Part shown: positions 6,730 to 12,797 of the stretch, one piece after another
Layout of the letters: each line of letters starts with the position of its first letter
Position numbering within the stretch: the first letter of the stretch is position 1
DNA from: an uncultured Anaerolineales bacterium
Lineage (GTDB): Bacteria > Chloroflexota > Anaerolineae > UBA7937 > B3-Chlor
Assembly: GCA_964433755.1 (NCBI GenBank)
Contig: CAYSSR010000002.1
Coordinates: 81,419 to 145,418 of the forward strand
Length of the DNA stretch: 64,000 bases
Reading direction: 5' to 3'
Position numbers and translations under genes: made by a program
The notes under the pieces: model-generated
Seen by the model: the letters and a program-made list of their open reading frames with translations, nothing else
Told to the model about the DNA's origin: nothing
The model's database searches: none

Positions 6730-7017
6730 CTAGTCGACAGCAGGTTCGAGCAACAGCCTGTGCACAGGCTGCCTGGGCCTGGCCATCTTGCGATAGCCGT
6801 TACCGTTGCCACCGCTCGGTCGCTGACTCATCCATGTATGCAGTTTCCGTGCGAACTCTGTAACAGAATCGGCCTTGATACCCGTGAGGGCATCCTGTTC
6901 CTCAGCATCGAGATCGAAATCCTCCACGACGATCGCGGGATTGGTGAGTAGAGTATCACGAAACTTCCCATCTATCAGAGCCATGCACATAATGTTGTTC
7001 AAGGTCTGATCTGACAT
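6730..7017 (-). CDS. Small protein resembling NHLP-clan (nitrile-hydratase-leader-like) RiPP leader domains
   Basis: 95 aa. LNNIMCMALIDGKFRDTLLTNPAIVVEDFDLDAEEQDALTGIKADSVTEFARKL follows the pattern seen in NHLP / Franean1_4349 / Os_1348-type families. SGG at residues 68-70 is followed by a 25-aa tail. GGAGGGGATAGG lies before the ATG. Confidence 0.5.
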   Translation of the reverse strand: MSDQTLNNIMCMALIDGKFRDTLLTNPAIVVEDFDLDAEEQDALTGIKADSVTEFARKLHTWMSQRPSGGNGNGYRKMARPRQPVHRLLLEPAVD

Positions 7018-7043: not shown

Positions 7044-7625
7044 CTACGTCGAAGTAGCGCGGGCCTCACGCAGGAACATCGACTCTTTCAAGAACAAGAA
7101 CACCCCCATCACGATCAGAACATCTCCTACGCTAAGAGCCGTTGGGATCGGAAAGGGCTTGGGAATGACCATGATGTCCGAGAGAAACCACAGCGTGGCA
7201 TCTCCGGGCTTGGCCACCATGTTCTTGGTGCGTCCCACAATGTATCCCGTCTGCAGTTGGGCTACGTTGCCGTCGTATCCTATCTGGACCAACGCATCGG
7301 GTGTGATAGGCATGAAGCCGCCGTTCAACACCATCACCAAGAAGTTCAGCAGCAAACCCACGCCTATGAGCTTCACTCCGTCCAGATCGCGGTTCTGCCA
7401 AACCACCACGAACAGCAGGAAGTGCGATGCCGTGAGCAACAAGGACCTCGCACTTAGTAATCCATGAGCCGTCTCAGCAGGAAAGAAGATGAGGTACGCC
7501 TGCATGAGAAAGGCGAGAGGGGCCAGCCACGCCCACTTCACTTCGACGTGGGCGAGATTGCCGACCCTGCCTCCCACTGCCGCCAGCCCTATTATCAGAG
7601 CCAGACATAGGGCTATCAGGATCAT
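7044..7625 (-). CDS. Polytopic membrane protein, DUF5317-like
   Basis: 193 aa with 5-6 hydrophobic helices. NGGFMPITPDAL and LSDIMVIP...SVGDVLIVMG resemble DUF5317 as I remember it. Confidence 0.55.
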   Translation of the reverse strand: MILIALCLALIIGLAAVGGRVGNLAHVEVKWAWLAPLAFLMQAYLIFFPAETAHGLLSARSLLLTASHFLLFVVVWQNRDLDGVKLIGVGLLLNFLVMVLNGGFMPITPDALVQIGYDGNVAQLQTGYIVGRTKNMVAKPGDATLWFLSDIMVIPKPFPIPTALSVGDVLIVMGVFLFLKESMFLREARATST

Positions 7626-7631
7626 CGCTGT

Positions 7632-7754
7632 CTATCCGCCACTTCCCCCATATCCCGGAGGAGCGCCAGCCGCAGCAGCCAGCGCGACGAGCGTCAGAAC
7701 GATCCACGCGATCCTCATGTTCCGTGCCGTGAAGTACGCTGCCATCTTTCTCAT
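7632..7754 (-). CDS. Candidate small membrane peptide (40 aa), not in the ORF track
   Basis: Hand translation gives MRKMAAYFTARNMRIAWIVLTLVALAAAAGAPPGYGGSGG*. GGGGAGGG lies 7 nt before ATG 7754, and the stop is 6 nt before the DUF5317-like ATG. Confidence 0.3.
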   Translation of the reverse strand: MRKMAAYFTARNMRIAWIVLTLVALAAAAGAPPGYGGSGG

Positions 7755-7755
7755 G

Positions 7756-7799
7756 AAAAAACCCTCCCCGTAGTTATGCTTCCATTCTACCGGGGAGGG
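7756..7799 (-). terminator. Intrinsic terminator after the STAND/SARP regulator gene
   Basis: On the minus strand, CCCTCCCCG (7799-7791) pairs with CGGGGAGGG (7770-7762). The loop is 20 nt and TTTTTT follows at 7761-7756. Confidence 0.6.
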
Positions 7800-7818
7800 T
7801 TTAGCTAATGTTTAGCTA
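7784..7818 (-). promoter_or_regulatory. Tandem direct repeat TAGCTAAAC-AT-TAGCTAAAC (11-bp phase) 9 nt upstream of a TAGAAT -10 box; candidate activator (SARP)-dependent promoter
   Basis: Repeats at 7818-7810 and 7807-7799, TAGAAT at 7789-7784 (minus strand). There is no recognisable -35 at the 17-nt position (AACATT). Confidence 0.35.
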
Positions 7819-7836
7819 GAGAGACCGAGCTAGGAT

Positions 7837-10800
7837 TCACCTGTCATCGGCCAGCAATCCGCCAAACATGTCCAGCGTCTCTTCGGATGGTCCAGTCCCC
7901 AACTCCTCTTCGAGTATCCTCTGCAGCGTCCCTAGTTGCTTGACAGCCCCAGCCCGATCACCCATCTCGAGAAAAGTGCCGATCAGTTCGCGATGGATGT
8001 CCTCTCGGAGCGGGTCCTCGTCCAGGAGTCTATGGCAGGACTCAACGGCATCCTCGAGTCTACCCTGTCCCCGGCAGTAGCGTACCAGGTCCTCCAAAGC
8101 CTGGTGGTACTCTCGTCGAAGGGAATCCCTCAACACATCGGTCCACTCTGAATAGACGTCCTCCAGGTAGTCCCCACGGTAGAGGGAGATCGCTTTCTGT
8201 AGATAGGTCAATCGCTGCGCCCTCGTTGCCTTGCTAGCCTTGGCCAGATTGCGACGAAACTCGTCGACGTCATACTGGTATCTTCTCGACTCTAGCCGAT
8301 ACGCGCCGCCTTCGTACGAAATGGCATCAGTCCCTCCGAGGAGACGCCTCACCTGGAACAAGTAGAAGTGGAAAGTACTGTGCGCCTTGCCCACAGAAAG
8401 ATCAGGCCACAGGGCCGCCACGATCTGGTCCTTCGTCACCACCGGGTGAGCCAAGAAGAAGAACAGCATCTCCTTGGCCCGCAGGCGCAGCTCCTGCGCC
8501 TCGACCACCTCACCATCTCGACAGACGGTGGATGAGCCAAAAGCACGAACGTCAACAGGCGTCGGCGTAACTTCGGCAGGCTCCTTCGATGCCGTCCTGC
8601 TCGCTGGCTCAGTCCTTCCAAGGAGCCTTCTCAGGAGATCTCTGTGGCCCTGTAGTGCCGTCTCTCCCATCGCATACTCCAGCAGCGGACGGCTTCCAGT
8701 GCCCTCGTCGAGCAGCAGTGGATCAAACCCAGACTTGGCGATGATGTCCAGTGCGATCTCCAGATTCAGCATCGCCTCGCGCACCGACTCCACACCGAAG
8801 AGGACGGCGGCCAAGTGGAAACGAGCCTTTGCCAGCTCCTGCCGGGCGCTGCCATCCTGAAAACTGGACACCGCCTGTTCAAGCGTTCGGAGGGCCTCTT
8901 TGTCCTTTCCCTGCACATGGAGCAGAATGCCGCGCGACGCTTGACAGAGGGCCACCTCGTGGTCGGACGCATGTTCGTACGCCTTCTCGATGGCCTGTTC
9001 CAAGAGCTCATCAGCTCTCTCGAAGTTGTGCTGCGCCCGTTCCAGGTTTCCCACAGCGTCCCACACGTACCTGACCAGGAAACCCTCATCGGCCTCCTCG
9101 GCTAGTGCGAGCGCCTTGTCGTACTCTCCTCTTGCCAGGCCGTATTCTCCCCTTGCGCGATACACATCGCCGATCGTAGCCCTGGGATAGGCTTGATGAC
9201 GTAGCAATCCCAGGGACTGGCCCTCATTCAAAGCCTCCTGAAGGGTGTCCAAGGCCTCGTCGAACCTCTCCTGGCGGTAGTAGGCCACGCCGATGTTGTT
9301 CAAGGTCATGGCCATGGAACCCCTCGCACCTAGCCGACGCCAGACCGCCAGAGCCTTCCGGCTGTAGTGCAGATACTTCTCGACATCCACCGAATAGTAG
9401 ATCGTCCCGATGTCGTGCAGAGTAACGGCCGCATCGTACGCGCGCTCTTCTCCAAGCTTCTCGAACAAGGCCAGTGCCTTCAGGAGTTCCTCGAGGCCTT
9501 GCTCTAGCTGCCCCAGCAACCCGTAGCAGACACCCAGAGTCCTATGAGCCTTGGCTGTCAAGACCCCATCTTCGGTGCCAGCAATCAGCGACAGTGCTTC
9601 CTGAGTCTTGGAGATACCCTCGGAGTACTCGGAGCGAAGGCGATGGATAATGGCCTCCTGGAGCAGGGCTTCGACCGTTCCCAGCCTTTCTCCCCTCTCC
9701 GAAAAGCCCTCTTTGGCCTGCTGAAGCGCGCGTATGGCATCACCCAGACGACCGGAGTCGGTCAACACCTTGGACTGCCAGAAGTAGATCCACGGCGAGG
9801 AAGTCACCTTCCCGTTCAGAGAGTCGATCCAGAACAGCAGACTGCTCCATCTTCCTGAACTGAACGCCCAGGTGACTACCTCTTCGACCAACTGCTGAGC
9901 TTCGTCGTAGGCCTCGGCATCCAAGTAGTGGCGAATCGCCTCGTCCCAGTTCTCCCGGGACTCGAACATGTGACCGGCTTTGAGATGGAGCGCTGCATAG
10001 CGATCTCCATCCTCCCGAAGCTTGGACCTCAGGAACTCCTGGAAGAGTTGATGGTACCGGAACCAATCCTCACCATCTGTGGCCAGCCTGGAGACGAAGA
10101 GGTTCTTGTCCTCCAACAGCGCCAGCATCTCGCGCGCGTTGTCCGTGCCCAATAGCTCATTGCAGAGGGAGGGGTTCATGCGTTGAAGGACTGAGGACGC
10201 CATGAGGAACCTCTGCACATCCGGTGGCTGCTGCTCCAACACTTCCCGAGCCAGGTAGGCGAATATCTGGCTACCGTCCCCCTGGGCCAGCGCCATGGTC
10301 TGTAGCAGCCCCTTCCAGAGGGTGTGGGTGGTGAGAAGAATGGCCGTAATCCAGCCTTCAGACTTCTGCGCCAGTCTCTCGGCCTCGTCGGCGGGCAGAT
10401 CCAGATTGTGATTCTGTCGAAGCAACTGCTGGATCTCAGGCCCAGTGAACTTGAGATCGTCGTTCCCAAGCCCCGCCAACTCCCCGCGCGCCACCAATTC
10501 TATGACGGGGAGTCCAGGAGTCGTGGTCCTGCTGGCGAGCAGGATATGACAGTTCTCCGGCAAGCGACGTAGGAGGAAACTGAACAGCGAGGTCACTTCC
10601 CTGGAATCACTGATCAGGTGGAAGTCGTCGATTACCAGGGCAAAGTAGTCTGGGATGGCCTCATAGATCTCGTTGACCAGAGTCCCGGCAACGGACCTGA
10701 GCCCTTCAGCACGGATGCCCTCATTGAGAGCAGCCAGAGCCCTCGCGCCGAACTCCGGAAAGCGCTCCTTGATGGAGGCCACCAGGTACTCCAAGAACAC

Positions 10801-11034
10801 CCTGGGATCGCGATCCCACTCATCCAAGGAGTACCAACAGATGGGCAGATCGGTATCGTGAGCATAGTCGGTCAGTAGAGAGGTCTTGCCGTAACCAGCC
10901 GAGGCGGCAATGAGGATTAGCTTGCGGTCGATGTGCTCGTGGACGAAGTCGACCAGCCGCGCGCGATGCAGCAGATCGCGCCGCTTTCCAGGTACAAGGA
11001 CCTTGGTCCTGACGATCGAAGTCTCCACGCTCAT
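7837..11034 (-). CDS. Large transcriptional regulator: MalT-like STAND ATPase, TPR array, and C-terminal SARP (OmpR-type wHTH + BTAD)
   Basis: N-terminus VRTKVLVPG..LILIAASAGYGKTSLL (Walker A). Central TPR-like repeats. C-terminus VDVRAFGSSTVCRDGEVV...DQIVAALWPD...FYLFQVRRLLG...YRLE...YDVDEF plus a BTAD helical region. ATG 11034 follows GGGAGAGAG. Confidence 0.8.
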   Translation of the reverse strand: MSVETSIVRTKVLVPGKRRDLLHRARLVDFVHEHIDRKLILIAASAGYGKTSLLTDYAHDTDLPICWYSLDEWDRDPRVFLEYLVASIKERFPEFGARALAALNEGIRAEGLRSVAGTLVNEIYEAIPDYFALVIDDFHLISDSREVTSLFSFLLRRLPENCHILLASRTTTPGLPVIELVARGELAGLGNDDLKFTGPEIQQLLRQNHNLDLPADEAERLAQKSEGWITAILLTTHTLWKGLLQTMALAQGDGSQIFAYLAREVLEQQPPDVQRFLMASSVLQRMNPSLCNELLGTDNAREMLALLEDKNLFVSRLATDGEDWFRYHQLFQEFLRSKLREDGDRYAALHLKAGHMFESRENWDEAIRHYLDAEAYDEAQQLVEEVVTWAFSSGRWSSLLFWIDSLNGKVTSSPWIYFWQSKVLTDSGRLGDAIRALQQAKEGFSERGERLGTVEALLQEAIIHRLRSEYSEGISKTQEALSLIAGTEDGVLTAKAHRTLGVCYGLLGQLEQGLEELLKALALFEKLGEERAYDAAVTLHDIGTIYYSVDVEKYLHYSRKALAVWRRLGARGSMAMTLNNIGVAYYRQERFDEALDTLQEALNEGQSLGLLRHQAYPRATIGDVYRARGEYGLARGEYDKALALAEEADEGFLVRYVWDAVGNLERAQHNFERADELLEQAIEKAYEHASDHEVALCQASRGILLHVQGKDKEALRTLEQAVSSFQDGSARQELAKARFHLAAVLFGVESVREAMLNLEIALDIIAKSGFDPLLLDEGTGSRPLLEYAMGETALQGHRDLLRRLLGRTEPASRTASKEPAEVTPTPVDVRAFGSSTVCRDGEVVEAQELRLRAKEMLFFFLAHPVVTKDQIVAALWPDLSVGKAHSTFHFYLFQVRRLLGGTDAISYEGGAYRLESRRYQYDVDEFRRNLAKASKATRAQRLTYLQKAISLYRGDYLEDVYSEWTDVLRDSLRREYHQALEDLVRYCRGQGRLEDAVESCHRLLDEDPLREDIHRELIGTFLEMGDRAGAVKQLGTLQRILEEELGTGPSEETLDMFGGLLADDR

Positions 11035-11182
11035 CTCTCTCCCTACCAAGGCGACAAGTGGCTGTCTCTTGCCGCAATGCCATCCCTGTTAGGGACCCGG
11101 CGATCTTGACTCCGCCCACTCCTTCCGCCAAGCAACCCTGTCTGGGCTCCAGCGTATTCGATCCACCCTCAGCGCGGGCTTA

Positions 11183-11926
11183 TCAGAAACGCCGCCAGGG
11201 CATCACGGCTGGGAAGAGCAGCTTGAAGAACTCCTTCAACGACTCCAACGTCTCCTCATCGGACTGGGTAACGTTGGCGTGTAGCGTCAACGAGAGGATA
11301 CCATTGTCGGGAACTCGCTCAGGGTCCGTCCAGAGATACCAGTAGAGAATGACACGGTTGAGCTCGCCCTTCCCGGCAATCACACGCTGCACGCTAACAG
11401 AGGAGGTACCCAGTTCGATACTCTCCAGCCCGACATCTAAGATCCGCCAGCCACTGCCTGGATAGCACGTCAAGGCGGTGTGCTCGAACAGGTGAAAACT
11501 CTTGCCCCCCCTGCTGCCGATAATGGAGAAGAACAGGCTCTCACCGTCGTCAGCGGTGTACTGTCGCGTCGTTGCGATCTCGGGGTCATCGTACCACTCA
11601 TCCACTGATCCACCCATCTGAGCGTCCGGACCCTCGGATCGCCAACGCCCAAGTTCCCGGGGTATCTCACTGAACAAGTCCTCTCGCAGAGTAAAGTCTA
11701 CCGCGGTGGCTAGGGCTCGCTCGTACGAGGTTCGCCGATACCATCCCTCCACGTCAACGATCACCACGTTGGTGGCGTCACTGGCCATGGCAGGAGCCGC
11801 TTCCGCTGGGTCGACCACGCTAGCGACTGGCGAGGAAGTAAGCTGGCGTGACAGTACGAGCCACCCTCCGAGAGCGCCCAGAAGCAGCAGTACGACGATC
11901 AGATATCGCGTCGAATCTCCGAACAT
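11183..11926 (-). CDS. Exosortase-associated EpsI-family protein
   Basis: N-terminal TM helix, H..E....CYPGSGW and VILYWYLW motifs typical of EpsI. Overlaps the end of the exosortase gene by 28 nt. Confidence 0.65.
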   Translation of the reverse strand: MFGDSTRYLIVVLLLLGALGGWLVLSRQLTSSPVASVVDPAEAAPAMASDATNVVIVDVEGWYRRTSYERALATAVDFTLREDLFSEIPRELGRWRSEGPDAQMGGSVDEWYDDPEIATTRQYTADDGESLFFSIIGSRGGKSFHLFEHTALTCYPGSGWRILDVGLESIELGTSSVSVQRVIAGKGELNRVILYWYLWTDPERVPDNGILSLTLHANVTQSDEETLESLKEFFKLLFPAVMPWRRF

Positions 11927-12732
11927 CCTGCCAACCTGCTAGCCAGTATGAGCAAGCCGAAGGCCAAGAGGAAGAGAACTGGACTCGAGTAGTCGTGAAA
12001 GTACCTCATGCCAGCTTCTGCCCCAAAGACGTGCGCTATAGCCAACAAGGATGACACGCGAAAGATGTTGGCCACTATGGCAATAGGGACGGACAGCAGC
12101 AGCAGCACAGTCTTCGCGCGATAGGATCCCTCCAGAATGTAAACGAAGATCACCACAAGAGTGGCCAGCGCCACGATGGAGTTCAGCCCGCTACAAGCAG
12201 CACCCACCACGAAGCTGGAATCCTGAAGTTGAATCCGAGAACCCTGGCTGACCGCAGGAATGCTCAGGAGTCTGACGACGGAAGTCGAGACCGTGGCCGT
12301 GAAAGACTCCAGAGCCGGGCTCACCCGATTGATGAGCGGCACTGGAATCATGAACAGCAGGAACGCTAGCGGAAACGTTATCTCCCGTGTGGCTCTCTTC
12401 CCAAGGAAGTAAAGCGCCAGCCCGAACAGCAACAGGATGAAGGCTACAGCCGACAGATGGTACGCTTGCCAGACCTGAGCCACCAGAAAGCCCACCAGAC
12501 TGACCCCCAACACCAACAGACCGGCGTTGCTGGGCTCCCGACTGTCACCTCCAAATACTTCCCTCTTTCGCCAGAGGAAGAAGGCGGATACCAAGGGCAC
12601 CAGGAAGCCATGGGAGTAGTACGAGTTGTTGAGCCAGTTGTAGGCTAACCAAGTGAACGTGGAAGAGAACAGGAGTGTCACCAGCCCCAGAATGATCACC
12701 CCTCCCACGATATCTCGTTTAGCGGCCTTCAT
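11899..12732 (-). CDS. Exosortase (Xrt) family transpeptidase
   Basis: YYSHGFLVPLVS, catalytic-type GAACSGLNS, and IVANIFRV...IAHVFG (Arg and His motifs). About 8 TM helices. Start set to ATG 12732 (MKAAKRD) because the predicted promoter lies downstream of the track start at 12777. Confidence 0.8.
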   Translation of the reverse strand: MKAAKRDIVGGVIILGLVTLLFSSTFTWLAYNWLNNSYYSHGFLVPLVSAFFLWRKREVFGGDSREPSNAGLLVLGVSLVGFLVAQVWQAYHLSAVAFILLLFGLALYFLGKRATREITFPLAFLLFMIPVPLINRVSPALESFTATVSTSVVRLLSIPAVSQGSRIQLQDSSFVVGAACSGLNSIVALATLVVIFVYILEGSYRAKTVLLLLSVPIAIVANIFRVSSLLAIAHVFGAEAGMRYFHDYSSPVLFLLAFGLLILASRLAGCSEIRRDI

Positions 12733-12767
12733 CCAGTTCACGCCCCACACTTGACTGTAACAAAGCA

Positions 12768-12797
12768 AGTATATCATTCGCGTGCTCGATGTGTCAA
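12768..12797 (-). promoter_or_regulatory. Putative promoter of the exosortase-EpsI operon (-35 TTGACA, 18 nt, -10 TATACT)
   Basis: Minus-strand TTGACA at 12797-12792 and TATACT at 12773-12768. Divergent from the gyrB promoter. Confidence 0.45.

Follow-up and report, generated by a model that had tools for sequence, protein, structure and literature searches.

The element described here lies at positions 7756-7818 on the minus strand of a 64-kb stretch of DNA (hereafter, the window) whose host is an uncultured member of the Anaerolineae, phylum Chloroflexota. It is situated between two co-directional genes, one coding for a large regulator that ends in a SARP module, the other for a small membrane peptide. 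The features of the locus, in window coordinates, are as follows.

7837-11034, minus strand: regulator gene, 1065 aa from the ATG at 11034; the open reading frame (ORF) is open from a TTG at 11049
7867-8574, minus strand: C-terminal SARP module (predicted wHTH + BTAD), residues ~826-1061 of the 1070-aa ORF
7810-7818, minus strand: distal direct repeat TAGCTAAAC; its core AGCTAWAS is at 7817-7810, predicted -40 to -33
7799-7807, minus strand: proximal direct repeat TAGCTAAAC; its core AGCTAAAC is at 7806-7799, predicted -29 to -22
7796-7817, minus strand: predicted 22-bp SARP box with 11-bp units AGCTAAACATT and AGCTAAACCCT; centre at -29.5 if +1 is 7777
7791-7799, minus strand: 5' arm of the hairpin, CCCTCCCCG (anti-Shine-Dalgarno); it doubles as the spacer from the box core to the -10 hexamer
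7784-7789, minus strand: -10 hexamer TAGAAT, inside the hairpin loop and exactly 9 nt past the proximal repeat
7777, minus strand: predicted transcription start, an A, the 7th nt past the -10 hexamer, from column conservation
7762-7770, minus strand: 3' arm of the hairpin, CGGGGAGGG, holding the only Shine-Dalgarno (SD) sequence of the 40-codon ORF
7756-7761, minus strand: T6 run immediately 3' of the hairpin; it may be a terminator tail, and it separates the SD sequence from the ATG
7632-7754, minus strand: 40-codon gene for a single-helix membrane peptide, MRKMAAYFTARNMRIAWIVLTLVALAAAAGAPPGYGGSGG; first gene behind the predicted promoter
7044-7625, minus strand: gene for a DUF5317 membrane protein (PF17248, E 3e-36), beginning 6 nt past the peptide stop codon
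6730-7017, minus strand: gene for a 95-aa small protein of the NHLP clan, Os1348 family (NF038399, 44.3 bits, cut-off 40; synteny)

The regulator stop codon (TGA, 7839-7837) and the ATG of the peptide gene (7754-7752) are separated by 82 nt. Read across this gap on the minus strand, the sequence has the elements of the original prediction, in the order and at the coordinates it gave: two copies of TAGCTAAAC, then CCTCCCCGG, TAGAAT, 13 nt, CGGGGAGGG, T6, a single C and the ATG. The predicted box begins 19 nt past the stop codon.

Conservation of the locus and its genes

Another 21 distinct loci from uncultured Anaerolineae, found in metagenome-assembled genomes and metagenome contigs, share this layout, which is therefore not a chance arrangement. 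The total of 22 instances comprises the window, 20 loci that were aligned with it (L002-L010, L133, L135, L137, L139, L141-L145, L147 and L148) and L012. Loci L134, L136, L138 and L146 are repeats of four of the counted loci, and L140 is decayed. In every instance, the element sits between an orthologue of the regulator gene and the genes for the 40-codon membrane peptide and the DUF5317 protein, except that in L012 only a remnant of that gene is left ahead of the box; elsewhere, the regulator adjoins it wherever upstream DNA is present.

When the 64-kb window and about 140 kb of orthologous neighbourhoods were scanned, one site was found per locus, and the few matches with 2+2 mismatches occurred at the chance rate (25 matches in 779 kb of unrelated DNA). 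A metagenome scan with the 14-mer TTAGCTAAACCCTC matched at least 120 stretches; among those listed, all are chance matches in unrelated DNA. A search for RNA runs containing this organism found none. Metatranscriptome contigs of relatives were compared with L004. One of 246 nt spans the 3' end of the regulator gene and continues into the operator, and another of 93 nt starts at the SD sequence, although contig ends are not transcript ends. Pieces of the peptide and DUF5317 genes were also found, but the contigs are too sparse and fragmentary to serve as support.

The peptide family has 20 members and is conserved and mostly unannotated. Differences between its genes are distributed over codon positions 1, 2 and 3 as 1344, 584 and 3186, which indicates that the gene is under purifying selection. 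The operon probably includes the gene for the NHLP-clan protein as its third member. A literature search found no mention of DUF5317.

The regulator consists of a MalT-like STAND ATPase, a winged-helix domain, tetratricopeptide (TPR) repeats and the SARP module, in this order (it is called as 1065 aa in L001, and the open ORF is 1070 aa). The MalT model covers residues 13-453 (E 1e-72), and TPR_12 was also found. As in MalT of E. coli and other STAND activators, the N-terminal 450 residues, which match the MalT model, are followed by TPR-like sensor repeats, and a switch driven by ligand/ATP is expected. However, MalT ends in a LuxR-type HTH that binds MalT boxes, whereas this protein ends in a SARP module.

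The original prediction assigned a wHTH+BTAD module to the C-terminus. Its BTAD half is clear (PF03704, 71.3 bits with a cut-off of 22.1, residues 927-1061). The wHTH stretch has no match to Pfam Trans_reg_C even at E 10, but residues ~838-1056 align by phmmer with positions 31-253 of AfsR (8hvr, E 3e-7, 219 residues) and 22-244 of EmbR (2fez), the DNA-binding domain being included in both cases, and the last ~240 residues match positions 23-261 of the NCBIfam AfsR model (E 4e-26). The predicted recognition helix KAHSTFHFYLFQVRRLLGG is nearly invariant in 17 orthologues, in keeping with the invariant operator, and the linker that precedes it is variable. The other regulatory proteins of the cluster are two response regulators, which matched only the receiver-domain stretches of full-length regulator models.

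Direct repeats and a predicted promoter lacking a -35 element

The two 9-mers TAGCTAAAC are separated by AT, so that their starts are 11 bp apart. The 20-nt repeat pattern, with up to three mismatches allowed, occurs once in the window and in none of 100 shuffled versions; the single 9-mer word is not over-represented within the window. This phasing is invariant in all 21 aligned loci. The proximal core AGCTAAAC is identical in 20 of these and differs by one base in L147 (AGTTAAAC), and in the distal core AGCTAWAS positions G2, T4, A5 and A7 are invariant. The proximal core is followed by the -10 hexamer after 9 bp in 20 loci and after 10 bp in L147. In L145/L146, the operator, the 9-nt spacing and a GATAAT hexamer are kept, whereas the sequence of the spacer differs, which argues that the distance from repeat to -10 is under constraint in the DNA itself, whether or not the hairpin is present. 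The repeat can also be read as an inverted repeat, TAGCTAA-ACA-TTAGCTA, since AGCT is self-complementary, a property that the original prediction had missed.

Across the 21 aligned loci, the six positions of the -10 hexamer are T in 20, A in 21, any nucleotide, A in 19, A in 16 and T in 21. Downstream of it, position 6 is C in 15 loci and position 7 is A in 19, as expected for -1 and +1, and the remaining loop positions are variable and near-random. No -35 element was recognized: AACATT, at a spacing of 17 bp, matches TTGACA at one of six positions, and the hexamers at 16 and 18 bp match at one and none, respectively. Elsewhere in the window, many promoters of the form TTGACA-17-TATAAT are present, and promoter-like sites with TTGACA are 2-3 times more frequent than in shuffled sequence. 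A promoter scan made no call at 7756-7818. Readings as ECF-type or sigma-54-type promoters were checked by eye and did not fit.

These comparisons strongly bear out several parts of the original prediction, namely two repeats phased by 11 bp, their distance from the -10, and a -10 without a -35; all are conserved in the 21 aligned loci beside regulator orthologues. The predicted start near 7777, which would give a 23-nt leader, agrees with the conserved C-A columns.

Repeats bound by SARPs are 11 bp apart, and the 3' one lies some 8 bp from the -10 (PMC10936776). The afs box of AfsR extends from -40 to -19 and is centred on -29.5; within each 11-bp unit, contacts are made to the first 8 bp (PMC10936776). 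At our locus, the repeat phase (11 or 22 bp being characteristic), the distance to the -10 and the absent -35 all agree with a SARP box. Given the predicted start at 7777, the window repeats occupy -40 to -19, that is, the register of the afs box. We infer that the predicted box is bound by the neighbouring SARP-module regulator, which would activate transcription from it.

AfsR of Streptomyces coelicolor (PDB 8hvr, 8jke and 8k60; PMC10936776) resembles the present regulator as a large protein that combines an ATPase and TPRs with a wHTH+BTAD module, the wHTH half being predicted here from alignment. In AfsR, the ATPase/TPR part is inhibitory (PMC10936776). Its afs box likewise has two 11-bp direct-repeat units, each with an 8-bp conserved core, that overlap a poor -35, and its target afsS is an adjacent small-protein gene, as is predicted here (PMC10936776). 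In contrast, the SARP module here is C-terminal, behind a MalT-like rather than an NB-ARC-type ATPase and TPRs; the organism belongs to the Chloroflexota, not the Actinomycetota; the repeat word is AGCTAAAC; and, by our reading of the phmmer alignment, the base-contacting residues T88 and R92 of AfsR are aligned with F and Q. The -10 hexamer is near-consensus here and poor in the afsS promoter, and the spacer doubles as an arm of an anti-SD hairpin. ActII-ORF4, DnrI, RedD and the SARP-LAL protein PimR (heptameric repeats) also use direct repeats at about one helical turn that overlap or replace the -35 (PMC10972967, PMC5930380). Such pathway-specific SARPs are cluster-situated activators (PMC10972967, PMC5930380), a role that is predicted here for an operon of a micropeptide, a DUF5317 protein and an NHLP-like protein without an assigned function.

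The exceptional locus L147 combines a helix region reading HSKFH/QIRRV with repeats CGCTAAAC/AGTTAAAC and the 10-nt spacer. It is a single anecdotal case, too little from which to argue that recognition helix and operator co-vary.

The hairpin around the predicted start site

The arms CCCTCCCCG and CGGGGAGGG are perfectly complementary, forming 9 bp, of which eight are G-C pairs, and enclosing 19 nt. The 101-nt RNA that includes them folds at -36.2 kcal/mol (z = -3.56 relative to shuffled sequences), and the hairpin alone at -22.5 kcal/mol, with a loop that is partly self-paired. In 17 of 20 loci, the hairpin energy is between -12 and -24 kcal/mol; in L009, for example, a 17-bp hairpin with a 5-nt loop has -23.8 kcal/mol.

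Evidence for conservation of the structure was sought in the alignment. Of the arm cells, 87.8% pair, compared with 43-65% when partners are slid. Compensatory changes affect seven cells in three pairs, including a change from C-G to U-A at one pair in five loci (Fisher p = 0.02, without phylogenetic correction). The covariation score was reached in eight of 500 shuffles, but related sequences can beat shuffles without any structure. Internal arm mismatches occur in L137, L143/144, L148 and L133; the hairpin is weak in L148 and L133, and it is lost, together with the 5' arm, in the L145/L146 lineage. The alignment thus indicates an anti-SD/SD hairpin that is kept in most loci, with modest covariation. 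Because it is lost in one lineage that retains the operator and the -10, the hairpin is an accessory. A search of Rfam at a permissive threshold returned only noise, all at least 28 bits under the gathering score.

For 18 of 20 loci, folding predictions put the probability of an unpaired SD sequence at 0.00 in read-through RNA; in RNA that begins at the predicted start, it is 0.05-0.66. These modeled values are in line with the original proposal that the SD sequence would be masked on read-through transcripts and freer on those from an internal start. The further statement that the 3' arm is the only SD sequence of the next ORF was confirmed in the sequence, within a hairpin conserved in most loci.

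Intrinsic terminators have a G+C-rich stem, a short loop of 3-8 nt and a U-tract directly after the stem. The original prediction called the hairpin such a terminator. Its stem is G+C-rich and is followed by T6 in the window, but its loop is long, with 9-bp arms that enclose at least 19 nt, which accounts for the lack of a call at the hairpin site in a terminator scan. Short-loop terminators are not enriched within this window. The T-run varies as well: it is T6 in the window and T3-T7 in most relatives, L148 has TCTTGG and hence no run, and the run persists in L145 and L140, where the hairpin is lost. It may therefore simply be the spacer between the SD sequence and the ATG. We regard termination of transcription by the hairpin as plausible but unproven. 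By either termination or masking, the hairpin around the repeats probably stops or silences transcripts that enter from the regulator gene.

The hairpin thus resembles both intrinsic terminators, in its G+C-rich stem and T-run, and SD-sequestering hairpins, in its anti-SD paired to the SD. It differs from either in a long loop that carries a functional-looking -10, with the predicted start between the arms. A literature search found no described example of a promoter start that splits the arms of a hairpin, which is not proof of absence.

Proposed mechanism and alternative explanations

We favor, as the probable explanation, an activator-dependent promoter without a -35 that serves the operon of the micropeptide, DUF5317 and NHLP-like genes, and whose spacer doubles as an arm of an insulating hairpin. 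In this model, the two AGCTAAAC words, whose starts are one helical turn (11 bp) apart, would fill about -40 to -19, and two C-terminal SARP modules of the regulator encoded upstream would bind them side by side, in the fashion of AfsR on the afs box. The bound modules would stand in for the -35 contact of the housekeeping sigma factor, and RNA polymerase would open TAGAAT and start at about 7777, yielding the 23-nt leader with a free SD sequence. Docking like that of AfsR is an extrapolation, because the SARP module is C-terminal here and N-terminal in the SARPs that have been described (PMC10972967). An activating signal is presumably received by the STAND/TPR part.

The 9-bp spacer CCCTCCCCG would be the anti-SD arm, and only read-through transcripts of the regulator gene would contain both arms. 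Since transcription is predicted to begin between them, the hairpin would form only in RNA from upstream. In such RNA, it would mask the SD sequence and, with the T-run, may also terminate transcription; the operon would thereby depend on the activated regulator for its output and be shielded from transcription that comes out of the regulator gene.

The promoter and SARP operator might be real and the hairpin no terminator, but a post-transcriptional mask of the SD sequence, a stabilizer of the 3' end of the regulator mRNA or a tolerated by-product. We consider this possible, though on the doubtful side. It would fit the at least 19 nt within the 9-bp arms and the silent terminator scan, the lack of enrichment of short-loop terminators in the window, and a T-run that ranges from T3 to T7, is absent in L148 and is retained without the hairpin in L145 and L140; moreover, the 3' arm is constrained as an SD sequence anyway. 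However, the stem in the window is a perfect, G+C-rich 9-bp helix with T6 directly after it, and the loop is itself paired in many relatives (for example, L009), which would make acceptable terminators. A more radical view dispenses with the internal promoter. The regulator, peptide and DUF5317 genes would then share one transcript, the hairpin would control translation by temperature- or factor-dependent unmasking of the SD sequence, and TAnAaT and the repeats would be kept for reasons at the RNA level. The gap of just 82 nt between co-directional genes, the complete sequestration of the SD sequence in folding predictions and the metatranscriptome contig of a relative that crosses the 3' end of the regulator gene into the operator are all compatible with it. 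We nevertheless judge it very unlikely, in that L145/L146 lack the hairpin yet keep the repeats, spacing and -10; the conserved loop positions are those of the -10 (A2 and T6 invariant) and the C-A at +1, whereas loop length and the rest vary; the repeats are conserved as words with no helix covariation (all pairs are invariant); and Rfam has no matching family.

The symmetry of the repeats raises a different question, namely whether a symmetric dimer, such as a repressor encoded elsewhere, could recognize the site as a palindromic operator, AGCTA-N5-TAGCT, with a promoter that is constitutive or repressed. AGCT is self-complementary, the site can be read as an inverted repeat, and the left flank GTTnAGCTA in a subclade formed by L135, L139, L141 and L142 mirrors TAGCTAAAC at 7-8 of nine positions. 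Beyond the self-complementary core, however, the direct model accounts for 3.4 of four positions on average and the inverted model for 1.4 of four; no conserved mirror counterpart exists for the AAAC that is invariant in the proximal copy, and L139 has a third repeat, in direct phase. The genome uses TTGACA, and the lack of a -35 here implies that the promoter needs an activator, and the site always adjoins the gene with the SARP module, in SARP register. A palindromic operator therefore appears highly improbable.

An extension of the favored promoter model is that the site controls a self-contained circuit of peptide signalling in Anaerolineae, with a regulator whose STAND/TPR part would sense something made by its own target operon. 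The sensed product would be the 40-residue membrane peptide, possibly handled by the DUF5317 protein, or the NHLP-like protein, with positive feedback; the hairpin would shield the loop from read-through of the regulator gene, and a single 9-bp stretch would have been selected both as spacer and as anti-SD or terminator arm. We offer this as an unlikely but specific idea. If true, it would represent a previously undescribed architecture, in which a promoter start splits an insulating hairpin and a C-terminal SARP acts outside actinomycetes.

Judged from sequence comparison, the element itself is well supported. The literature treats SARP activators as a speciality of actinomycetes with an N-terminal DNA-binding module (PMC10972967). 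The locus provides a precise operator and promoter prediction for a regulator of another phylum that combines a MalT-like ATPase and TPRs with a SARP module at its C-terminus, together with 22 independent natural variants. If the promoter model is correct, one short sequence would serve as promoter spacer in DNA and as insulator arm in RNA, an economical design of relevance to the annotation of operon boundaries and to synthetic insulated promoters. Activation by sigma adaptation, as seen in the AfsR structures, would then reach into the Chloroflexota, and the site would offer a first entry point into the regulation of DUF5317 and of the micropeptide, which is conserved and mostly unannotated.

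Conserved architecture of the element

Direct reading of the minus strand across 7600-7960 located every component of the original prediction for 7756-7818 at its assigned position:

7839-7837, minus: stop codon (TGA) of the regulator ORF (1065/1070 codons), 18 nt before the first repeat
7818-7810, minus: distal direct repeat, TAGCTAAAC
7807-7799, minus: proximal direct repeat, TAGCTAAAC, separated from the distal copy by AT
7798-7790, minus: spacer between proximal repeat and hexamer, CCTCCCCGG
7789-7784, minus: hexamer TAGAAT, followed by GGAAGCATAACTA
7770-7762, minus: 3' hairpin arm, CGGGGAGGG, directly after GGAAGCATAACTA
7761-7756, minus: TTTTTT, followed by C and then by ATG at 7754

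The 20-nt repeat pattern, with up to three mismatches allowed, occurs once in the 64 kb and in 0 of 100 shuffles. Owing to the self-complementary AGCT, the direct repeat also reads as an inverted one (TAGCTAA-ACA-TTAGCTA), a character missing from the original account. Judged by the closest genome contigs, the host is an uncultured member of the Anaerolineae (Chloroflexota).

For comparison, 11 loci were collected from relatives of the downstream DUF5317 gene in species-representative genomes, and 16 further loci by exact look-ups of 11 sequences from the adjacent micropeptide family. The element was found in 21 distinct sequences beyond the window. Twenty of these were aligned with the window, and L012, which has a loop insertion of ~50 nt, was omitted. 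In the 21 aligned sequences, the proximal core AGCTAAAC is invariant at seven of eight positions and conserved in 20/21 at the eighth, and the distal copy reads AGCTAWAS, with G2, T4, A5 and A7 invariant. A gap of 3 nt, always A, T or C followed by TT, separates the repeats, and the 11-bp phase is therefore constant. Between proximal core and hexamer lie 9 nt in 20 loci; in L147 (1860-1938), whose repeats are altered (CGCTAAAC/AGTTAAAC), there are 10.

Within the hexamer, the columns are T (20/21), A (21/21), n, A (19/21), A (16/21) and T (21/21). Position 6 after it is C in 15/21 sequences and position 7 is A in 19/21, followed by an A-rich stretch. The remaining loop positions carry <0.9 bit each, and loop length ranges from 10 to ~50 nt. 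The conserved columns appear to be those of a -10 signature, in which -11A and -7T never vary, followed at the canonical distance by a pyrimidine-purine start, and they predict A7777 as the +1 nucleotide.

Several loci depart from this arrangement. In L145 and L146, the 5' arm is replaced (CGTGCAGGT) but repeats, 9-nt distance and a GATAAT hexamer are all kept; the promoter geometry is therefore constrained independently of the hairpin, which is dispensable. At the decayed locus L140 (200-270), the operator and 5' arm are gone, and only the Shine-Dalgarno sequence (SD) and T-run are left. L139 (418-448) has a third repeat, AGCTAGAG, upstream of the distal one and exactly 11 bp from it; some actinomycete SARP sites likewise have three in-phase repeats. 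One metagenome-assembled genome has a divided or partly duplicated cassette, with parts on L011 (5460-6000) and L012 (1100-1570), which have equal coverage. In L011, an intact regulator is followed by half an operator (…CAGCTAAAG), then by ~500 nt of unrelated sequence and by DUF5317, with the micropeptide missing. L012 contains a short C-terminal remnant of the regulator, a full operator, a weak -10 (TAATAA), the hairpin with its loop insertion and the rest of the operon.

Putative promoter, operator and regulator

As had been predicted, TAGAAT lacks a -35 box: hexamers 16-18 bp upstream match TTGACA at 0-1 of six positions. A promoter scan did not call the TAGAAT site. The same scan of three 20-kb segments found 9, 11 and 10 TTGACA-N16-18-TAnnnT sites, versus 4.5, 3.8 and 3.7 in shuffles, and several of these sites match at 11/12 positions. 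Over positions 1-60000 of the window, sigma-70-type promoter matches are 2-3 times as common as in shuffles. Given established promoter biology, a good -10 that lacks a -35, in a genome where -35 boxes are in use, argues that an activator provides the upstream contact.

SARP targets contain direct repeats with a spacing of 11 or 22 bp, and 8 bp separate the 3' repeat from the -10 (PMC10936776). In the AfsR initiation complex, two protomers lie side by side on a 22-bp box from -40 to -19 (centre -29.5). Each protomer makes contact with the leading 8 bp of an 11-bp unit, and the SARP dimer takes the place of the -35 as the support for sigma region 4 (PMC10936776). With our hexamer set at -12 to -7, the two cores fall at -40 to -33 and -29 to -22, and the predicted 22-bp box (7817-7796), numbered from the predicted start, is centred at -29.5. 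If that start site is correct, the register would be the same as that of the afs box of AfsR. The element has the phasing, distance and poor -35 of a SARP box, and the box begins 19 nt past the stop codon of a gene encoding a SARP module. Its mode of action would resemble that of the AfsR/afsS kind of SARP box promoter.

A palindromic operator, as the inverted repeat might imply, ranks low. One subclade has a left flank, GTTnAGCTA, that resembles a mirror half-site. However, when the self-complementary AGCTA core is set aside, the average fit is 3.4 of 4 positions for the direct-repeat model and 1.4 of 4 for the palindrome model, and the third copy in L139 is in direct phase.

Neither the window nor ~140 kb of orthologous neighbourhoods showed a second box beyond chance level, and a 14-mer scan of metagenome contigs gave only chance matches among the matches listed. 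Rfam has no family for the element.

The candidate activator is encoded immediately upstream:

7837-11034, minus: regulator ORF with MalT-like STAND ATPase, TPR and C-terminal BTAD domains

Residues 13-453 match the NCBIfam MalT model (E 1e-72), and the protein also has a precomputed WHD_MalT match and detectable TPR repeats. The original prediction gave it a C-terminal wHTH+BTAD module. The BTAD domain was detected (71 bits), but the Pfam Trans_reg_C model gives no match, so the winged-helix assignment rests on alignments with AfsR and EmbR. The AfsR SARP module (8hvr; DNA-binding domain plus BTAD) aligns with the full ~240 C-terminal residues (E 3e-7), EmbR likewise aligns with the last ~240 residues over the whole length, and positions 23-261 of the NCBIfam AfsR model match the C-terminus (E 4e-26). 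The regulator shares BTAD with described SARPs and can be aligned with the SARP modules of AfsR and EmbR, but differs from described SARPs in that their module is N-terminal and of actinomycete origin (PMC10972967). We found nothing on SARPs in Chloroflexi in the literature searched.

The predicted recognition helix, KAHSTFHFYLFQVRRLLGG, is nearly invariant among 17 orthologues, and the linker just ahead of the domain is highly variable. This near-invariance parallels the invariant operator. In an alignment read by eye, the base-contacting T88 and R92 of AfsR are replaced by F and Q, which is consistent with a different DNA word. In L147, the predicted recognition helix has changes (HSKFH…QIRRV) alongside the altered repeats and 10-nt spacer.

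Downstream operon and gene neighbourhood

The element lies within a conserved gene cluster that includes the following:

12768-12797, minus: near-consensus promoter TTGACA-18-TATACT with upstream TG, ahead of the exosortase gene
7632-7754, minus: 40-codon micropeptide ORF, the first gene 3' of the element
7044-7625, minus: DUF5317 gene (E 3e-36), starting 6 nt past the peptide stop
6730-7017, minus: 95-aa NHLP-clan protein (NF038399, Os1348 family, above cut-off), 26 nt beyond DUF5317

Two response-regulator genes come next, whose matches are only to receiver-domain stretches of full-length regulator models; no further DNA-binding domain was found among the scanned cluster proteins. Synteny is kept as gyrB (opposite strand), exosortase, EpsI, regulator, element, micropeptide, DUF5317, ~92-aa protein, response regulator(s) and SpoVS.

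The micropeptide family (20 members) has an invariant TL.ALAAAAGAP motif, with a basic N-terminus, one helix and a Gly-rich tail. Nucleotide differences at codon positions 1/2/3 number 1344/584/3186, a pattern of clear purifying selection that marks the predicted ORF as a real gene. Most sources either leave the micropeptide unannotated or call it a "hypothetical protein". The 95-aa protein, whose Os1348 family is RiPP-leader-like, has orthologues 3' of DUF5317 in longer related loci, with no obvious maturation enzyme in the cluster. The exosortase (XrtA-like) and EpsI pair (11183-12777, minus) is always upstream of the regulator, beside divergent gyrB; no PEP-CTERM-type substrate was found among cluster proteins examined in the window and related loci. 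Exosortase, EpsI and regulator may form one transcription unit reading toward the element. Metatranscriptome contigs of relatives show that parts of the operon are transcribed, in pieces from which RNA ends are not locatable; a search for RNA runs containing the organism itself found none. The literature searched yielded nothing on DUF5317.

Hairpin structure and possible roles

Arms CCCTCCCCG and CGGGGAGGG pair without a mismatch and enclose 19 nt; the 5' arm consists of the last C of the proximal repeat and spacer nucleotides 1-8. The element region folds at -36.2 kcal/mol (z = -3.56), and the hairpin by itself at -22.5 kcal/mol. Hairpins of -12 to -24 kcal/mol are predicted in 17/20 loci, several with internal loop pairing (for example, 17 bp with a 5-nt loop in L009). 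In the 21-sequence alignment, 87.8% of cells pair, whereas shifting the partners by 1-3 columns gives 43-65%, and compensatory changes occur in seven cells of three pairs. The main case is a C-G to U-A change at one pair in L009, L139, L141, L142 and L147, which also appears in L012 in an 11-sequence alignment. The covariation score was matched by 8/500 shuffles, and a Fisher test on the C-G/U-A pair gave p = 0.02 with no phylogenetic correction applied. Uncompensated mismatches occur in L133, L137, L143/144 and L148. Overall, the alignment moderately supports a real hairpin.

The hairpin with T6 had been proposed as an intrinsic terminator. The window does have an ideal G+C stem and T6, but the 19-nt loop counts against termination, and a terminator scan did not call the site. 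Over positions 1-60000, short-loop hairpins with T-runs were not enriched over shuffles. Many relatives have a T-run of T3-T4, and L148 has none; because the run stays where the hairpin is lost, it may be a mere spacer between SD and ATG. Efficient termination seems to us a little less probable than its opposite.

The 3' arm does hold the only SD of the next ORF, as predicted. Read-through transcripts from the regulator gene would carry both arms, and those from the predicted start the 3' arm alone. The computed probability of an unpaired SD is 0.00 in read-through RNA (18/20 loci) and 0.05-0.66 in RNA from the predicted start; this contrast is built into the design and demonstrates no more than the conservation of that design. 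We lean toward some insulating function for the hairpin, whether termination, SD masking or both.

The literature searched yielded no description of an anti-SD/terminator-like hairpin whose arms enclose a -10 and start site. Comparative support for the element is strong, and the sequence-based predictions that it offers for its uncultured host organisms are precise.
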